Virus genome (UHGV): UHGV-0148168
From: a virus
DNA: 13,309 bases
Strand: one strand, 5' to 3'
Both the position numbers and the translations under genes were made by a program. The notes beneath the pieces are model-generated. The model was not told the DNA's origin. It saw only the letters and a program-made list of their open reading frames with translations, and did not search any database. Position 1 is the first letter of the stretch; the number at the start of each line of letters is the position of its first letter. Below, in pieces: positions 3,959 to 9,841 of the stretch.

Positions 3959-4801
3959 TTAATCAACTGCTATTGGATGAATAGCATTAAACTTATGAAA
4001 TGCTTCTGATTTTTCTTTACGCGAAACACACATGCGAAGAACCTTTAATGGTTCATCTTCTTCACCCAACGATTTTCGTTTTTCAATATTAGAAGTTTTC
4101 CAACGAGCTTGCTCTGGAAACTCTCTATTGATTTGCTCAAGCGCTCTATTATGTTTAGAATTACTACGAATTGAACTACATCCACCGGGAGCGTGTGATT
4201 TTCCAGATACAACTAGATATTTGAACAAGGCCAAATGCGGATAACCTTGATTAATTAAATTGAGAAATGCATACATATCTTCGCATAAATCAATTTTTCC
4301 ATACCCAATTTGTTCTGTCGTAAGTTTTCCGAGGTCATACCATGTATTCGTGAATCCATATGAGTTTTCACGATAATTACCCCAAGATGAAGTAATTTTA
4401 AAAATTGGTAGACGAGCATGACCGTGATAATACCCGCAATCCATGGCATCTTCAACATATTGAATCAATTCATAGAACTGTTCACGAGTTAATTGATTAA
4501 TTTTATCTACGCGCCGTTTATCGTCTCTCTTTCGTATTGAACTCATACGAATAGTAGTATCATCATCAATCATCCATATTCGTTGACCTGCATACATATC
4601 AGTAATTGCTTTACGAGTACCGGAAATTCCATTAACATCATCAGGAATAGTTACAATTTTAGCTCTAGACCCATAAGCATCATAATAAGCTTTTTCTTCG
4701 TGTTCACGCACTACAATATGGGGTTCATAATCAGTCGGAAACATATCAAGGGCAGAAACTGCCCCTACACGCTGATAACTTGGAATTACGAATTGAATCA
4801 T
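3959..4801 (-). CDS. Putative DNA-modifying glycosyltransferase of GT-A type, 280 aa, at the locus where T4 carries beta-glucosyltransferase
   Basis: N-terminal FVIPSYQR followed about 75 residues later by WMIDDD (DxD) is the GT-A fold signature. T4 beta-gt is 351 aa and GT-B, and does not resemble this. Placement between uvsX and gene 42 suggests a hydroxymethylcytosine glucosylation enzyme such as the T2/T6-type beta-glucosyl-HMC-alpha-glucosyltransferase (uncertain recall). Confidence 0.5.
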   Translation of the reverse strand: MIQFVIPSYQRVGAVSALDMFPTDYEPHIVVREHEEKAYYDAYGSRAKIVTIPDDVNGISGTRKAITDMYAGQRIWMIDDDTTIRMSSIRKRDDKRRVDKINQLTREQFYELIQYVEDAMDCGYYHGHARLPIFKITSSWGNYRENSYGFTNTWYDLGKLTTEQIGYGKIDLCEDMYAFLNLINQGYPHLALFKYLVVSGKSHAPGGCSSIRSNSKHNRALEQINREFPEQARWKTSNIEKRKSLGEEDEPLKVLRMCVSRKEKSEAFHKFNAIHPIAVD

Positions 4802-5439
4802 TTAAGTGCCTTACATTTGTCAAAATGGTATCTTGTCATATTTGGCCCACGTCCTTTTAGTCCGCAATGCGGACATATTTTTTCTATCAAATTATGAGGT
4901 TTTCCTTTACGATTTTTAGACATCGTTTCTTTAATTATTTTAGCTTTTTCTGCGCCAAAAATTTCTTCATAAGTTTTACCAGAATTTTCCTTTGCTCGAT
5001 TTATAATTCCATATGCCTGCTCATTTTTACCATACATTGGATTACCTTCGCCTTTCATTCTTTTAGAATGATCAGGACGCTTGATTCCACGAAAGGCATT
5101 TCCGCACTTATATCTTTCTTCTGGAGATAGTTTTTTACCGTACATTCCATTTAATTTGCCTGGAAAACTTCCTCCCCATGCTTCATTCTTTAAATTATAT
5201 GAATCCGGACAATTAGCAGCATCTAAACAAGTTAAAATAATTTCTTCAACCTGTCTAAACATTGGTCCTTCATATAATATTTCTTTATTAAAGGATTTTA
5301 TTCCATATTTCTTTTTAGCATGTTGCCAAACTACACCCGAACCATCATAATTTGGGTTGTGACCATCATGACTTCCTATATACCACTTTTTAGTTTTAGG
5401 ATGTTTATACTTATAAACATGTGGCACATTTACTTCCAT
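4798..5439 (-). CDS. GIY-YIG family homing endonuclease (Seg-like), 213 aa, with NUMOD-like repeats and a C-terminal CxxC zinc-finger-like motif
   Basis: N-terminal VYKYKHPKTKKWYIGS fits the GIY...YIG motif. Repeated G-x-YGK/basic modules (NGMYGKK, NPMYGKN) and C-terminal CPHCG...DKC. The start overlaps the gene 42 end by 10 nt and the stop overlaps the glycosyltransferase start (ATGA), with no own promoter; typical of free-standing phage homing-endonuclease genes. Confidence 0.7.
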   Translation of the reverse strand: MEVNVPHVYKYKHPKTKKWYIGSHDGHNPNYDGSGVVWQHAKKKYGIKSFNKEILYEGPMFRQVEEIILTCLDAANCPDSYNLKNEAWGGSFPGKLNGMYGKKLSPEERYKCGNAFRGIKRPDHSKRMKGEGNPMYGKNEQAYGIINRAKENSGKTYEEIFGAEKAKIIKETMSKNRKGKPHNLIEKICPHCGLKGRGPNMTRYHFDKCKALK

Positions 5440-6170
5440 TTTCCAGTATAATCCTTTTTAGCAATATGAGTTTCACCAGTGTTCCACCAATGGTCAACTA
5501 AATAAAACTGATTTTCGTACACATGAAGACTTCCAACGTTCCATATAATAGAACCTGCTTTATATTGCCGCGATGGGTCGCCTGCATTCAAATCAGATAC
5601 TAATTTATCTAGTACGTATTTTTGCCATGCATAATCATTACGATAGCCTGCCCAGCAGTCATTGCTTCTCATATTAACAACTGCATTGACTTTCTTATCA
5701 CGAATCAGGTACTGTACTGTATTAGTACACATGAAATCTGACATACCATCTTTATTGTAGTCAAATTGCATGGATGGACGAGTATAAATCATGATACCAC
5801 GTCGAGAATCAGGATTTTGACCAAGTTCAGCTAAACACATATCATACTGGGCATAGTTATCTTCTGACCAGATAGCCCAGCCATAATTCGAGTTAATTTC
5901 ACCTTTAGAAGATGCTACTTGTTGCCAAATCTTCGGTGTTTCACCCGGAATATCTTTAACGAACAAGCTCTTAGATTTATACCATTCAAGTTCACGCTGA
6001 ATGTATTCATCATTAAGAGCGCCAAAAATAAACGGTTCATCTGCTACAAATGATGCGCCAATAATTTCAATAGTTTTAACGCCAGTTTTATCAACTACGA
6101 AATCTTTTTCTTTTAATGCAAGCCCCAAATGAAGACGGATTTCTTCAACTGTCATAGAGTCATTAATCAT
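5430..6170 (-). CDS. 42: Gene 42 dCMP hydroxymethylase (thymidylate-synthase fold), 246 aa
   Basis: Length 246 aa equals T4 gp42. The sequence matches my recollection of T4 dCMP hydroxymethylase, including the FMCTNT region carrying the catalytic cysteine. GAGG Shine-Dalgarno before the ATG. Confidence 0.85.
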   Translation of the reverse strand: MINDSMTVEEIRLHLGLALKEKDFVVDKTGVKTIEIIGASFVADEPFIFGALNDEYIQRELEWYKSKSLFVKDIPGETPKIWQQVASSKGEINSNYGWAIWSEDNYAQYDMCLAELGQNPDSRRGIMIYTRPSMQFDYNKDGMSDFMCTNTVQYLIRDKKVNAVVNMRSNDCWAGYRNDYAWQKYVLDKLVSDLNAGDPSRQYKAGSIIWNVGSLHVYENQFYLVDHWWNTGETHIAKKDYTGKWK

Positions 6171-6177
6171 TTAAACC

Positions 6178-6327
6178 TCAATTGATGCATTCATATTTAA
6201 ATTGTAACAGTAATAAACCCCACCCTATGATAAGAGTTGGAATCATAGCAGGAACTGTTACGCTATAGTATATACTTATTATAACCATCAAGATTAAAAG
6301 CAATGCTGCTATAATTTTGCTTTTCAT
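6178..6327 (-). CDS. Small hydrophobic ORF, 49 aa (MKSKIIAALLLILMVIISIYYSVTVPAMIPTLIIGWGLLLLQFKYECIN), predicted membrane peptide; absent from the supplied ORF track
   Basis: Hand-translated codon by codon from the minus strand. The ATG at 6327..6325 overlaps the imm stop (ATGA); the TGA stop at 6180..6178 forms part of the gene 42 Shine-Dalgarno (TGAGG). It exactly fills the imm-42 gap and has two hydrophobic stretches. Confidence 0.45.
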   Translation of the reverse strand: MKSKIIAALLLILMVIISIYYSVTVPAMIPTLIIGWGLLLLQFKYECIN

Positions 6328-6575
6328 TCCTTCTCTCTGATGATAATTACTTGATTTGGCTGTACAGACTTTTTAGTTTCACCCGCAATTGACCAAATAA
6401 ATGTAATAAACCAACCAATAATTGACCAGTTAAACAGTAAAGATGTGAAAAAGATTCCTACTGTCGATTTTGACCCACGCATCAAGGCGATGAACCATGG
6501 AAGCATGTATATAATAATAGCCAACACACCTGAAACTAAAACCATAAAAATTGAACCTGCTACTAAAGTTTCCAT
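6324..6575 (-). CDS. imm: Imm, membrane immunity protein (superinfection exclusion, blocks DNA injection of superinfecting phage), 83 aa
   Basis: 83 aa equals the length of T4 Imm. Two hydrophobic transmembrane segments. Located between genes 43 and 42 as in T4. Its Shine-Dalgarno overlaps the stop of the upstream lipoprotein ORF. Confidence 0.7.
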   Translation of the reverse strand: METLVAGSIFMVLVSGVLAIIIYMLPWFIALMRGSKSTVGIFFTSLLFNWSIIGWFITFIWSIAGETKKSVQPNQVIIIREKE

Positions 6576-6582
6576 GTTTTCC

Positions 6583-6963
6583 TCACTTAGTCAAATTTTT
6601 TACACATGAATTATAAGAATTCACTACATACTCCATCGGAGCATTTTTACCTGTACGCAACTGGTAATTATTAGCCCAATTTGCCCAAAGCACGGCGCAG
6701 TAATTTTCAATTTTTTCTTCGCGTGTAATTACATCTGAATTACGATATGCTTGAGCAGATTCATCTGGACGAATAGCTTCGTCAAAATTCGCCTGCATTT
6801 GTTCTACTGTTTGCTTTGGAGCTTCTTTATAACACTTGACATTAGGATTATAAAATTTGCTTGAACAGTTTACAATTTTTCCTGCATCAGACTGATTTAC
6901 TACCGGTCCTTGAGCTACACAACCAGTAAGACCTAATGCAATAACCAAAATAGCGATTTTCAT
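6583..6963 (-). CDS. Predicted lipoprotein, 126 aa from the ATG at 6963 (the track's 130-aa version starts at a TTG at 6975); function unknown, possibly the imm.1 position
   Basis: MKIAILVIALGLTGC is a classical signal peptide with lipobox L-T-G-C. Four further cysteines in the mature part. GGAG Shine-Dalgarno 6 nt before the ATG. A candidate promoter lies upstream and the gene 43 terminator lies beyond it. Confidence 0.6.
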   Translation of the reverse strand: MKIAILVIALGLTGCVAQGPVVNQSDAGKIVNCSSKFYNPNVKCYKEAPKQTVEQMQANFDEAIRPDESAQAYRNSDVITREEKIENYCAVLWANWANNYQLRTGKNAPMEYVVNSYNSCVKNLTK

Positions 6964-6997
6964 TTCATTCTCCAAATCCGTATTAGTTGATAGTTGT

Positions 6998-7027
6998 ATA
7001 GTACCATGGAAGAACAGTCTTGTAAAC
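6998..7027 (-). promoter_or_regulatory. Candidate sigma70-type early promoter for the lipoprotein-imm-small ORF-42 gene string: -35 GTTTAC (7027..7022), 18-nt spacer, TGG-TACTAT -10 (7003..6998)
   Basis: Minus strand reads GTTTACAAGACTGTTCTTCCATGGTACTAT, with a TG two bases before the -10. Lies downstream of the gene 43 terminator and about 35 nt before the lipoprotein ATG. Confidence 0.45.
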
Positions 7028-7110
7028 AGTTTTGTGAAAAATTTTTTAGGGAATTCTAAGGGTCCAGAATCATCTGTTTTTCATAAGTATAGATTTATAT
7101 TACTTGTATG

Positions 7111-7131
7111 AAAAAGGGACCCGGAGGTCCC
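7111..7131 (-). terminator. Rho-independent terminator after gene 43: GGGACC-UCCG-GGUCCC hairpin followed by UUUUU
   Basis: Plus 7116..7131 gggacccggaggtccc is a perfect 6-bp inverted repeat with a 4-nt loop. On the minus strand it is followed by TTTTT (7115..7111). Begins 13 nt after the gene 43 stop codon. Confidence 0.8.
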
Positions 7132-7144
7132 TAGATTTATTCTA

Positions 7145-9841
7145 TCAGCCAAACAGGAAGTCTAACGAAGCTTTTTCCTCATAATCCATACCAGCCGATT
7201 CACACATACCCGCAAGCGGTTTAACAAACGATTTTTGGAACAAAGTTGAGTAGTCAATCCAAGATAGTACATCAGAACGAATTTCTTTTGGAAGTTCTGT
7301 GCCCGACGGCCAAGCAATGCACTTGTCACCAAATGGATTTCCTTCACGCAATGGAAGAACCATTACCTTATTTCCATCCAAAATTGGAGCTACACCTAGA
7401 CCACTAACAGCTCGACGATAAGTTAGCACACCGCGAATATGGAACGGGCATTTAAATCCTGGCCAACCTTTATCATCATATTTCGCTATATCGTTCGCAG
7501 TTTTTACTTCAGCAATAACTTTATAGTCGAGTTGACGATATTCTTTCTCAAAGTTCTTGTAGTATTCTTGGACAGACTCTTCACCTTCCTGAAGAATACG
7601 ACGAATACTTTCTTCGAGAGCTTCTTGCACTGCTTTTGGTGTTGAACTCTGCTGAGTTTCCATGCCCATGATTTTTAGATGCGGTTCAGCAAATCGCTTA
7701 TCTTCCATATCATAAACGTTCAGAGCATAACGTTTTTTCGCTTTCCAAAATCCACCAACACCCTTTGAACCAAGCGGAGGGCAAGAAATAGCTTCACGGT
7801 CCATATGCATCAGATGCTCGCGATTATTCATATAATCACATAACTCACGATATGCAACATCAATCATAGGTTCCATCTTTTTCTTACCAAACTGATTCAT
7901 GAATTCAACTAAATCATTTTGTTCTTTAAAGCGGTCAAGACCTACTTTTTCAATTACTTTATCTACACAAACATATACCGAATCAGTATCACCTGCTGCA
8001 ATGAAATCTTCATCATTAGTTCCGCATACTTTATTCAGATATTCATTAATTTTACGAGCAATCCACTGAATACCGACTTGGCCAAAAATTGTGATAGCAG
8101 TAGCATTTCGCAAATCATAGTAACGGAAATGAATATTACCAAGAGCACCATAAAGACTGTTAATAAGAATTTTACGGTTTAGCTGATTTGTATTAGCAAG
8201 TGTAGCCGCTTTTTCACATTCTTCAATCAGACTATTGAGAACAGATTCAGTATAATTCGATAGTTCATTTAAGAAATCATCACTGAACTTAACATATCGT
8301 TCAACTTCTGGTTTAGTTGAACAAGACCCTGCGCCTTTCATAATAATCTTTTTAATAGCTTCGGCATTCATTTCTTCAGCGAACATTTTCTTTTTCCAAT
8401 CTTTACGCTGGAAAAATACTTTAGCGATTTCCTTTGGAATGATACCTTCTTGATGCTTATCATACATCCATCCATTCGGAGAACAAGAATATTCATCACT
8501 CGGTTTAGGAGCTGTTCCTGCGATATATTCATGAATTGGATGAACTTTAAACTGCCCACGAATAGTCTCAGGACTAATGTTAACCTGACGAATAATGCTC
8601 GGATACAGAGACGTCAAGTCAAAACTCATAATATATCGACGAGCAATTGGTTTAGGTTCAAACACAAATGCACCCGGAAAACTCTGTTTAACGTGCGAAC
8701 CTTGTTGAGGAATAACCTTATGTTCACCTTTCAATGAGTTAAAAATAATAGCATCCCAAGTTTTAATAGGACTCATTACACCGGAAAAAGGCATTTTAGC
8801 GTAATAAGACATACTTAAAACTAGATCGATAAACCCACGAATTTTATCAATTGCTTGAACTGATTCTACGTCAATGATGTTATAACTAATGTATCGTTGA
8901 TGATTAGTCTCACGAAGTTTATTAATAGGACCGTCGTATGGTAATTTACCTTTTTTGGTTTCATGCTGAGCAACTGATTCCAAAGAGAATGACGGCAAAT
9001 TAGTAAAAGCGAATTTCTTGTACAAATCTAAATAATCAAGAATAGATACGCCATCAATAGAATAAATTTCTTTGCTACCGTACATATTTTGAATTAGTTT
9101 AGATTTTACCCGACCGATTGGAGAGAAGCGTTTCATACTACGTTCGCCCAGAATCATTTTAACACGATTCATGATATACGGAACGTCAAACCCCTCAATA
9201 TTCCAACCGGTAAAAATAGCAGGTCGTTTCTGTTCCCAGAGATTGATATATTCCATGAGCATATCACGCTCATTATCGAATGGCATATAAATTACTCTGT
9301 CAAGAATTTCTTGAGGAACTTCATCACCACCTTCACAGTCAAGCTTAGCAGCTAACTTTGCATCCCATTTTGATACTGAACCGTACATTGAATTCAAAAG
9401 GTCGAAAACATAAAAACGATCGTCAATTGAATCATAATGAGTGATAGCATCAATTTCATATTCAGCTTTCATTGGGTCAGGAAATTTATCACCAGTAACC
9501 TCAATATCACAGTTAGCTACACGAACAAATTTTCGGTCATAAACAATTTCTGAACCATACGTATCACTGATATAAGCGAGTTTAAAATCGTTCATACCAA
9601 GAGCTTCGAGACCGATGTCTTCCATTCGCTTCATCCAATCTCGAGCATCTTTCATTGATTGAAATTTTTGAGGAGCGCAATTTTTACCATAAATGTCTTT
9701 GTACTTTGACTCTTCCTTACAATGCCTAAACATAGTCGGAAGATATTCTACTTCACGAGTACGTTCCTTTCCGTTTTCATCAATATAACGTTCAACAATG
9801 TTATTTCCGACTGTTTCGATAGAGATATAAAATTCTTTCAT
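7145..9841 (-). CDS. 43: Gene 43 DNA polymerase (family B, with 3'-5' exonuclease), 898 aa
   Basis: 898 aa equals T4 gp43. N-terminus MKEFYISIETVGNNIVERYIDENGKERTREVEY matches my recollection of T4 gp43. Exo I motif CDIEV, pol motif A DLTSLYPS, motif B KILINSLYGALG, motif C GDTDS. Confidence 0.96.
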   Translation of the reverse strand: MKEFYISIETVGNNIVERYIDENGKERTREVEYLPTMFRHCKEESKYKDIYGKNCAPQKFQSMKDARDWMKRMEDIGLEALGMNDFKLAYISDTYGSEIVYDRKFVRVANCDIEVTGDKFPDPMKAEYEIDAITHYDSIDDRFYVFDLLNSMYGSVSKWDAKLAAKLDCEGGDEVPQEILDRVIYMPFDNERDMLMEYINLWEQKRPAIFTGWNIEGFDVPYIMNRVKMILGERSMKRFSPIGRVKSKLIQNMYGSKEIYSIDGVSILDYLDLYKKFAFTNLPSFSLESVAQHETKKGKLPYDGPINKLRETNHQRYISYNIIDVESVQAIDKIRGFIDLVLSMSYYAKMPFSGVMSPIKTWDAIIFNSLKGEHKVIPQQGSHVKQSFPGAFVFEPKPIARRYIMSFDLTSLYPSIIRQVNISPETIRGQFKVHPIHEYIAGTAPKPSDEYSCSPNGWMYDKHQEGIIPKEIAKVFFQRKDWKKKMFAEEMNAEAIKKIIMKGAGSCSTKPEVERYVKFSDDFLNELSNYTESVLNSLIEECEKAATLANTNQLNRKILINSLYGALGNIHFRYYDLRNATAITIFGQVGIQWIARKINEYLNKVCGTNDEDFIAAGDTDSVYVCVDKVIEKVGLDRFKEQNDLVEFMNQFGKKKMEPMIDVAYRELCDYMNNREHLMHMDREAISCPPLGSKGVGGFWKAKKRYALNVYDMEDKRFAEPHLKIMGMETQQSSTPKAVQEALEESIRRILQEGEESVQEYYKNFEKEYRQLDYKVIAEVKTANDIAKYDDKGWPGFKCPFHIRGVLTYRRAVSGLGVAPILDGNKVMVLPLREGNPFGDKCIAWPSGTELPKEIRSDVLSWIDYSTLFQKSFVKPLAGMCESAGMDYEEKASLDFLFG

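Follow-up and report, generated by a model that had tools for sequence, protein, structure and literature searches.

A frame of 49 codons in the gap between imm and gene 42 of a T4-like phage is probably a copy of gene 42.1 that encodes a small membrane peptide and overlaps a P42-like middle promoter

UniRef lists the T4 allele of a small protein encoded between gene 42 and imm as 'Uncharacterized 5.6 kDa protein in Gp42-imm intergenic region'; the gene has been named 42.1 in RB14 and RB51, RB32ORF043c in RB32 and RB69ORF054c in RB69. Its annotation is uneven. In a spread sample of 57 annotated records the gene was called in 28 (about half), as hypothetical, and it is uncalled in the T4 records AF158101.6 and NC_000866.4, in T2 (LC348380.1) and in SHFML-11, so that a reader who follows the T4 gene order sees a gap at this place. 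The neighbouring Imm protein is reported to bind the tape measure protein and, when a plasmid is its only source, to exclude T4 (preprint 10.64898/2026.03.06.709160). In T4 the middle promoter P42 has also been mapped, with its start site at 26320 (Hinton 2010, Table 1, PMC2988021), and the middle-promoter consensus consists of a MotA box, (a/t)(a/t)(a/t)TGCTTtA, situated 12 +/- 1 bp from a -10 element, TAtaaT (PMC2988021). Literature searches with the names of the gene and for T4 Ribo-seq or proteogenomics gave nothing relevant, with no paper on function and no Ribo-seq or proteomic study covering the small ORF among what was found; in the CRISPRi-ART paper the matches to 'imm' were to the word 'immunity'.

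Here we analysed a window of 13,309 nucleotides from the virus genome UHGV-0148168, a T4-like phage that belongs to Tequatrovirus. Over 801 bases surrounding the small ORF its identity is 99.4% with Shigella phage SHFML-11 and with three BCP phages, and 98.5% with T2, and 503 phage records match these 801 bases at 90% identity or more. Every gene in the region lies on the minus strand. Gene 43, encoding DNA polymerase (7145-9841), is followed by imm.1 (6583..6963), whose product is a predicted lipoprotein of 126 aa counted from the ATG (DUF5481, PF17578, E=7.6e-69; lipobox LTGC; imm.1 in the T4 and T2 annotation), by imm (6324..6575), encoding the 83-aa superinfection immunity membrane protein (PF14373, E=7.8e-16; phrog_1039; T4 annotation), by the small ORF, a 42.1 homologue of 49 codons plus TGA (6178..6327), by gene 42 for dCMP hydroxymethylase (5430..6170; PF00303; phrog_160; T4 annotation), and by a homing-endonuclease-like ORF (4798-5439).

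Just 3' of gene 43 the minus strand carries a GC-rich hairpin with a T run after it (7115..7132), the only terminator-like site found on that strand between 5900 and 7200, and from its position it would part the gene 43 transcript from an early unit imm.1-imm-42.1-42, of which imm.1 is presumed to be the first gene. Before imm.1 a site resembling T4 early promoters (6998..7027, minus strand) reads GTTTACA, 17 nt, TGgTACTAT, is preceded by a tract rich in A/T and matches 9 of 12 consensus positions together with the TG, and it is the likely source of transcripts able to encode the full small ORF. The terminator scan (5900-7200, minus strand) found no terminator-like site between imm.1, or the early-type promoter, and gene 42.

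The small ORF begins with ATG, runs for 49 codons on the minus strand, and would yield the product MKSKIIAALLLILMVIISIYYSVTVPAMIPTLIIGWGLLLLQFKYECIN. Its ATG (6327-6325) overlaps the TGA of imm (6326-6324) as ATGA on the coding strand, the start and the stop sharing TG (6324..6327, minus strand), which has the appearance of a termination-reinitiation signature and suggests that the small ORF is coupled to imm as its upstream gene. Directly 5' of the ATG, within the 3' end of imm, lies a purine-rich tract resembling a Shine-Dalgarno sequence, GAGAGAAGGA (6328..6337, minus strand), and the coding strand across the junction reads ...GAGAGAAGGA-ATGA-AAAGC... This tract is kept in the Tequatrovirus loci; the Dhakavirus copies lack an obvious Shine-Dalgarno sequence and rely on the overlap alone. 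At the opposite end the sequence is TGC ATC AAT TGA GG TTTAA ATG, in which GG comes right after the stop TGA (6180-6178), then TTTAA, and lastly the ATG of gene 42, at 6170. The stop is thus fused to the gene 42 Shine-Dalgarno sequence, TGAGG, with its TTTAA spacer (6171..6180, minus strand), and 7 nt, including the remainder of the Shine-Dalgarno sequence, separate it from the gene 42 ATG. The TGAGG-TTTAA junction is identical in all Tequatrovirus loci.

The original prediction, made from the letters of the DNA, had described a 49-codon frame filling the gap between imm and gene 42, an ATG overlapping the imm stop as ATGA, a TGA lying within the TGAGG of gene 42, and a product with two hydrophobic stretches parted by P-A-M-I-P-T. 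The ORF listing contains the frame exactly as described, the coding-strand sequence bears out both junctions, and the two stretches and the motif between them are present. It had also been supposed that the ORF went uncalled through a length cutoff, which is plausible because the default ORF listing likewise begins at 60 aa. The contention that such a fit is hard to get by chance was right for the frame, the junction geometry and the amino acid sequence, all of which are conserved beyond chance, but not for length alone: when the ORF was shuffled by mononucleotides its 48 codons stayed open in 1.7% of cases, and in this same 2.5 kb the wrong frames of known genes contain several spurious ORFs, 53-89 aa long.

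One implication of the prediction is not supported, namely that the gene had been overlooked. NCBI already lists the exact protein of the window, under AFH20004.1 and YP_006986596.1 from phage ACG-C40 and under UAV89007.1 from U115, where it is a 'putative transmembrane protein', and the gene has a name and both PHROG and Pfam families. The gene is already known, and there is no new gene here. Our overall reading, to which we give a probability of roughly 0.8, is that the locus is the local copy of 42.1, a translationally coupled gene for a membrane hairpin with P42 embedded in it, and a dispensable accessory gene under purifying selection. The ORF, its junctions, its conservation, the selection acting on it, its family and the promoter motifs are what the analysis itself shows, and the P42 start comes from the T4 literature.

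The gap had been taken to be otherwise empty, and this was not so, given that it contains P42, mapped in T4, whose MotA box, 12-bp spacer and TATAAT also occur in the window. In T4 the copy of the ORF is complement(26227..26376), and the start site 26320 is nucleotide 57 of the ORF. In the window a consensus match to the MotA box, ATTGCTTTT, occupies ORF nucleotides 24-32 in codons 8-11 (6296..6304, minus strand; read 6304-6296), differing at its last position, where the window has T and the consensus A; it is followed by a 12-bp spacer and the -10 element TATAAT (6278..6283, minus strand; read 6283-6278), and the same motif is found in T4. The A at 6271, seven bases past TATAAT, is by homology the T4 P42 start. 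The box, spacer and -10 element of a middle promoter are therefore all in place, and from the T4 mapping we infer that P42 is active in the window phage as well. Among the Tequatroviruses silent-site divergence is 0.056 over codons 1-19 and 0.147 over codons 20-49, a 2.6-fold reduction over the former, which is what an overlapping promoter would produce.

With the P42 start in codon 19, the full peptide could come only from read-through transcripts begun upstream, and P42 transcripts would serve gene 42 alone, with a leader of about 100 nt. The P42 leader had no Rfam match, and its folding was no better than that of shuffled sequences (z = -0.84). An internal start at Met28 on P42 transcripts was considered and set aside, there being no Shine-Dalgarno sequence before Met28 in any genus. 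In loci of the Mosigvirus/Kanagawavirus type the N-terminal promoter motif is absent. In these genera the last codons of the ORF (Glu/Asn-Cys-Phe-Asn) form a MotA box, A[AT]TGCTT[CT]A, that lies 12 bp from a TACAAT situated in a conserved inverted repeat downstream of the ORF, and the next gene may have its middle promoter in this 3' motif.

Given these elements, it was not unreasonable to consider that the region might be non-coding, comprising only P42 and the 5' leader of the gene 42 mRNA, with the open frame incidental. The T4-mapped start inside the ORF, the promoter elements, the lower silent-site divergence over them, the ease with which ORFs of this length arise by chance in this DNA and the lack of a gene here in the T4 reference annotation are all in keeping with such a proposal. 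Comparison of the locus among phages, however, points the other way. We assembled 42 loci, consisting of 9 obtained by nucleotide similarity or anchored on imm, 6 from other genera (tblastn), 21 from IMG/VR that came via the family alignment, 5 from metagenomes anchored on gp42, and the window itself. The frame was intact in 42 of 42, over several genera of Tevenvirinae, with 45-49 codons and indels of whole codons only; this includes all five of the gp42-anchored Tequatrovirus metagenome contigs.

Codon tests were made on the 26 unique coding sequences from the first 37 loci. The sense frame was open in every one of the 26, and stops occurred in the other five frames of nearly all; variable columns at codon positions 1, 2 and 3 numbered 33, 24 and 44, and the median dN/dS was 0.22 (37 unsaturated pairs). 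Among 20 Tequatrovirus loci pN/pS was 0.33 for the small ORF, as compared with 0.057 in imm and 0.108 in gene 42, values by which the small ORF is constrained, more weakly than imm and gene 42. Synonymous codons were moreover found at invariant residues: CCT, CCA and CCG for P26, CCA, CCT and CCG for P30, ACT, ACA and ACG for T31, TAC and TAT for Y20, and CAA and CAG for Q42.

A retained frame, purifying selection and silent codon changes at conserved residues were thus found together, with the isolates teqhad and Pu-Krd-SF5 as exceptions. Whole-codon indels, a dN/dS of 0.22-0.33 and synonymous change at invariant residues are at odds with an incidental frame, as is the retention of frame and peptide motif in Dhakavirus, Mosigvirus and Kanagawavirus, where that part of the ORF holds no promoter motif and the downstream gene is not 42. 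The best conserved codons, 20-49, also lie downstream of the promoter, and the leader shows neither significant RNA structure nor an Rfam match. The comparative data strongly disfavour the non-coding proposal, which we regard as extremely improbable. There is, conversely, strong comparative evidence that 6178-6327 (minus strand) is a genuine protein-coding gene.

Two of the checks suggested along with the original prediction were therefore favourable, in that the peptide is conserved in relatives by tblastn and the balance of synonymous and non-synonymous substitution favours coding (dN/dS 0.22, pN/pS 0.33), and the proposal of a genuine frame for a small hydrophobic membrane peptide, coupled at its start to imm and with its stop in the ribosome-binding site of gene 42, is supported. 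The tblastn search with the peptide was incomplete owing to low-complexity masking, reporting no record of at least 90% identity despite the existence of identical alleles, and counting of blastn spans was substituted for it.

For that purpose a 201-base query spanning the ORF was used, which returned 493 records, of which 60 were sampled at even steps. The span was the same as that of the query in 58 of these, and 59 were free of frame-breaking indels. In fFiEco06 the spacer that leads from the stop to the ATG of gene 42 has one extra A, and the ORF is intact; in Pu-Krd-SF5 changes of +1 and -14 within the ORF scramble everything after residue 27. Separately from this sample we found teqhad, in which an extra G in a GGG run, which could be a homopolymer sequencing error, leads to a 43-aa product with a scrambled tail, as well as G4507, which has lost one codon in frame. 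Frameshifts or stops in close relatives, named at the outset as evidence that would count against the frame, are consequently not systematic, but they do occur in rare isolates, teqhad and Pu-Krd-SF5. Because the disrupted copies are found in two viable isolates the gene is probably non-essential, and the rare broken copies probably point to a dispensable accessory gene rather than to a non-gene.

The ATGA overlap was likewise present in 42 of 42 loci, whether the upstream gene was imm or a SIS-domain isomerase, and because it is found in every locus whatever the upstream gene, translational coupling can be argued to be a conserved mode of expression. The window ORF has the expected genomic position, downstream of gene 43 and overlapping the upstream stop as ATGA. 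The upstream gene is imm in Tequatrovirus, Dhakavirus and the L022/L023 type, and encodes a SIS-domain protein in Mosigvirus and Kanagawavirus; the downstream gene is gene 42, a lipoprotein gene or a sugar-nucleotidyltransferase-like gene. Thus in Dhakavirus (Bp7, VR5, CLB_P2) the small ORF comes after imm and is followed by a gene for a 166-aa lipoprotein instead of gene 42, and in Mosigvirus (APCEc01) and Kanagawavirus (CIP9, Q7622) it stands between the gene for a SIS-domain sugar isomerase and the sugar-nucleotidyltransferase-like gene, ending about 40 nt before the latter with the promoter-like site between. Mosigviruses carry imm several kb away (e.g. WFK at 18.8 kb; WFK_00049), and in the Gelderlandvirus Melville imm overlaps gene 42 directly, with no small ORF.

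The geometry of the two junctions, identical in all Tequatrovirus loci, would also be expected if the ORF served as a translational relay, ribosomes leaving imm reinitiating on it and being delivered by its stop, within the gene 42 Shine-Dalgarno sequence, to the gene 42 start, with a peptide whose sequence has no function. This is hard to reconcile with purifying selection on the amino acid sequence and with a motif, P-x-M-I-P-T ... Q-x-K-x-x-C-x-N, that is invariant across genera. In Mosigvirus and Kanagawavirus, furthermore, the gap of about 40 nt and the promoter-like site within it separate the ORF from the next gene, Melville couples imm to gene 42 without the ORF, and gene 42 has a promoter and a ribosome-binding site of its own, namely P42 and the TGAGG at the 3' end of the small ORF. 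A mere relay is in our judgement very improbable.

The proximity to imm raised a further proposal, that Imm has the peptide as an accessory subunit, which helps to block DNA entry of superinfecting phage. The translational coupling to imm in Tequatrovirus, Dhakavirus and the L022/L023 type agrees with it, and both products would be small inner-membrane proteins (the peptide by prediction), made from the same early transcript if our model holds. The two genes part company elsewhere, however: the ORF follows the SIS-domain gene in Mosigvirus and Kanagawavirus, the Mosigvirus imm being several kb off, the imm-bearing Gelderlandvirus has no ORF at its imm-42 junction, and the profile search gave no family member from imm-carrying Klebsiella or Acinetobacter phages. 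Imm expressed alone from a plasmid, moreover, excludes T4 (preprint 10.64898/2026.03.06.709160). We therefore think a subunit role quite unlikely, and any part that the peptide plays with Imm may be a modulatory one. Obligate linkage to imm was rejected on the Mosigvirus/Kanagawavirus and Melville arrangements, and linkage to gene 42 was rejected as well, since 75 distant T4-like contigs with gp42 (52-67% identity; mostly freshwater and marine metagenomes) carry gene 42 without any member of the family.

The window peptide matches phrog_3610 (E=3.4e-26), its residues 3-49 aligning with profile positions 1-47 of 47. The Pfam model PF26865.1 is precomputed on all database homologues. Members of the family are 45-49 aa long and share the invariant residues Y20, P26, M28, P30, T31, W36, Q42 and N49, all of them present in the window peptide. 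Among 20 clustered members the invariant set is M1, Y20, P26, M28, P30, T31, W36, Q42, C47 and N49, C47 not being absolute in the wider set, where one allele has C47Y. P-x-M-I-P-T is the most conserved part of the family, and a C-terminal K-[YF]-x-C-[FI]-N is nearly invariant.

In 27 of 27 members the core, 36-40 residues long, is free of charge and has 2-3 prolines in its middle, charges being confined to the extreme N-terminus and the K-[YF]-x-C-[FI]-N tail. A core of this length exceeds one membrane span and fits two. AlphaFold, run with the family alignment, gave a mean pLDDT of 89.5 and helices at 2-24 and 26-44 with a one-residue break between them; the break in the model being a single residue, the proposal of a hairpin rests on span length and the prolines. 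As the basic residues lie at both ends, a helical hairpin with both termini cytoplasmic is the favoured and most likely topology according to these predictions. By eye we rejected a signal peptide or lipoprotein N-terminus, as neither an A-x-A-type site nor a lipobox is present.

The family appears to be narrow, given that an exhaustive profile search of 1.84 billion representatives returned three genuine clusters only, all of 46-47 aa; two larger hits, P0024 and P0026, were rejected as repetitive sequences. The named members come only from T4-like phages of enterobacteria. No functional homologue was found in Pfam (local copy, without PF26865), NCBIfam, PADLOC, PDB or BFVD. The PADLOC defence and counter-defence profiles had no match to three family members at E<=0.1, and Pfam gave no match of the peptide to Imm_superinfect (PF14373) at E<=1. 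Matches to an NCBIfam signal peptidase I (E=0.06) and to Pfam RSN1_7TM (E=0.38) were dismissed as hydrophobic noise. A fold search gave no PDB match and a single BFVD match, itself a family member from Pectobacterium phage PM2.

Returning to the locus as a copy of 42.1, we can propose how it might work, bearing in mind that translation, topology, early-only expression and function are the inferred parts of the explanation. Early in infection a transcript covering imm.1-imm-42.1-42, probably begun at the early-type promoter before imm.1, would carry the full peptide. Ribosomes ending imm would reinitiate at the ATGA, and the peptide's own termination would take place on the gene 42 Shine-Dalgarno sequence. 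The 49-residue, almost uncharged product would insert in the host inner membrane as a helical hairpin, with helix 1 at about 2-24, a tight turn at the invariant V-P-x-M-I-P-T and helix 2 at about 26-44, with the K-Y-E-C-I-N tail in the cytoplasm along with the N-terminus, which is short and basic. Later the MotA-dependent P42, in codons 8-17, would add transcripts that start at ORF nucleotide 57 and serve only gene 42, the same DNA being put to dual use as coding sequence and promoter.

The gene would on this explanation be a dispensable accessory kept by purifying selection in the enterobacterial Tevenvirinae, and our best guess at its role is that it acts early, and independently of Imm, to modulate some function of the host inner membrane. 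A more specific idea, speculative and in our estimate unlikely, would make the peptide a membrane effector that T-even phages use early in infection against a protein of the host inner membrane, perhaps as a second factor for exclusion or for anti-defence. Its synthesis would end once MotA and AsiA activate P42 and transcripts begin from codon 19. Were this true, the displacement of the promoter to the Cys-Phe-Asn codons in Mosigvirus and Kanagawavirus would represent promoter and peptide co-evolving in the same nucleotides.

While 42.1 opens no new kind of system, and the data here reveal no function, the locus is of value for annotation. The T4 reference, T2 and the closest relative of the window all omit a strongly supported gene, and pipelines that inherit from the T4 reference will go on missing 42.1. 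The gene adds one more conserved small membrane protein to the T-even early set, beside the superinfection-immunity gene, and it offers a clear example of a coding sequence and a mapped middle promoter in the same nucleotides, with silent-site change measurably suppressed.

AcrZ and MgrB of E. coli are small, hydrophobic, regulatory membrane proteins with a single span. The family resembles proteins of this type in size, at 45-49 aa, and in its near absence of charge, and by this likeness the peptide would likely be a modulator of a larger membrane protein, a comparison that we offer as a lead only. It differs from them in its core of 36-40 residues with central prolines, and neither its sequence nor its fold was matched to a protein of this kind in PDB, BFVD, NCBIfam or PADLOC.

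T4 Imm is, like the peptide, a small early inner-membrane protein, and its gene adjoins the ORF and is coupled to it in Tequatrovirus and Dhakavirus. The two have no apparent sequence relationship, the peptide having no Pfam match in the local copy. Imm is, in contrast, 83 aa long, with more helices and a known partner, the tape measure protein (preprint 10.64898/2026.03.06.709160), and it is under far stronger constraint (pN/pS 0.057 vs 0.33) and more widely distributed.

With T4 P42, which works by MotA/AsiA sigma appropriation, the window shares ATTGCTTTT, the 12-bp spacer, TATAAT and a predicted start at the T4-mapped position. P42 is a DNA element that overlaps the gene, and does not explain the peptide; in Mosigvirus and Kanagawavirus the P42-like motif is located instead at the 3' end of the ORF, where it arises from the Cys-Phe-Asn codons.

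The closest likeness is to the T4 5.6 kDa protein and 42.1 of RB14 and RB51, which are the same gene in the same position with the same ATGA and TGAGG junctions. The RB69, JS98 and JS10 records give a shorter, 36-aa version that starts from an internal Met, which is argued against by the universality of the ATGA overlap. The T4 allele is 88% identical to that of the window, the two differing at six residues (V15I, A27L, L32I, I34L, G37S and F43V).

Phages of the Mosigvirus/Kanagawavirus type carry an inverted repeat, tGGTACAatggaTGTACCa, that is conserved 3' of the stop codon of the 49-codon membrane-peptide gene (42.1). The site is at 982-1022 in two of the phage loci fetched for comparison, L010 and L014, and at equivalent positions in L015, L019-L021, L024 and L029-L032. 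In these loci the final codons of the small ORF, TGC TTT/C AAT, make up a consensus MotA box, and 12 bp separate it from the hexamer TACAAT within the repeat. As read from the sequence, MotA box and TACAAT together constitute a candidate middle promoter, which would serve the sugar-nucleotidyltransferase-like gene of these phages and which overlaps both a hairpin and the conserved C-terminus of the peptide.

Salmonella phage Melville (Gelderlandvirus, L118) has no small ORF between its Imm-like gene (701-949) and gene 42 (from 946), which overlap directly by 4 nt. This junction indicates that either the Tequatrovirus, Dhakavirus and Mosigvirus lineages acquired 42.1 or Gelderlandvirus lost it. 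In Dhakavirus-type phages the small ORF is followed by the gene for a predicted lipoprotein of ~166 aa (MKKL...LLSGCA; 989-1489 in L012, 991-1491 in L011, and also found in L018, L022 and L023), for which family searches gave no match. Tequatrovirus instead carries a predicted lipoprotein gene, imm.1, on the upstream side of imm.

A tblastn search of the 49-aa peptide against phages returned zero records at ≥90% identity and aligned only residues 24-49, despite the presence of identical alleles in SHFML-11 and U115. We attribute the incompleteness of the protein-level searches to low-complexity masking of this hydrophobic peptide, and counts from the tblastn search against phages are therefore lower bounds.

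Directly after gene 43 on the minus strand of the window is a terminator-like GC hairpin followed by a T run (7132-7115), which carries a terminator score on the plus strand too. Next, in front of imm.1 on the minus strand, comes a site resembling a T4 early promoter (GTTTACA - 17 nt - TGgTACTAT, within 6998-7132). In our analysis the product of imm.1 belongs to DUF5481 and has an LTGC signal of the lipoprotein type; in RefSeq T4 (NC_000866.4, 26100-27100; L117) it is named 'iduronate sulfatase' and gp42 'thymidylate synthase', both of which look like propagated misnomers.

On the other side of gene 42, overlapping its 3' end by 10 nt, lies a homing-endonuclease-like ORF of 213 aa (window 4798-5439, minus strand; matches phrog_314 at E=1.8e-31 and, weakly, a NUMOD3 motif), the counterpart of which is annotated 'hypothetical protein' in SHFML-11. 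This ORF is probably a mobile endonuclease insertion beside gene 42; the same position is occupied in T4 by the beta-glucosyltransferase gene, and in T2 by that of a different glucosyltransferase.
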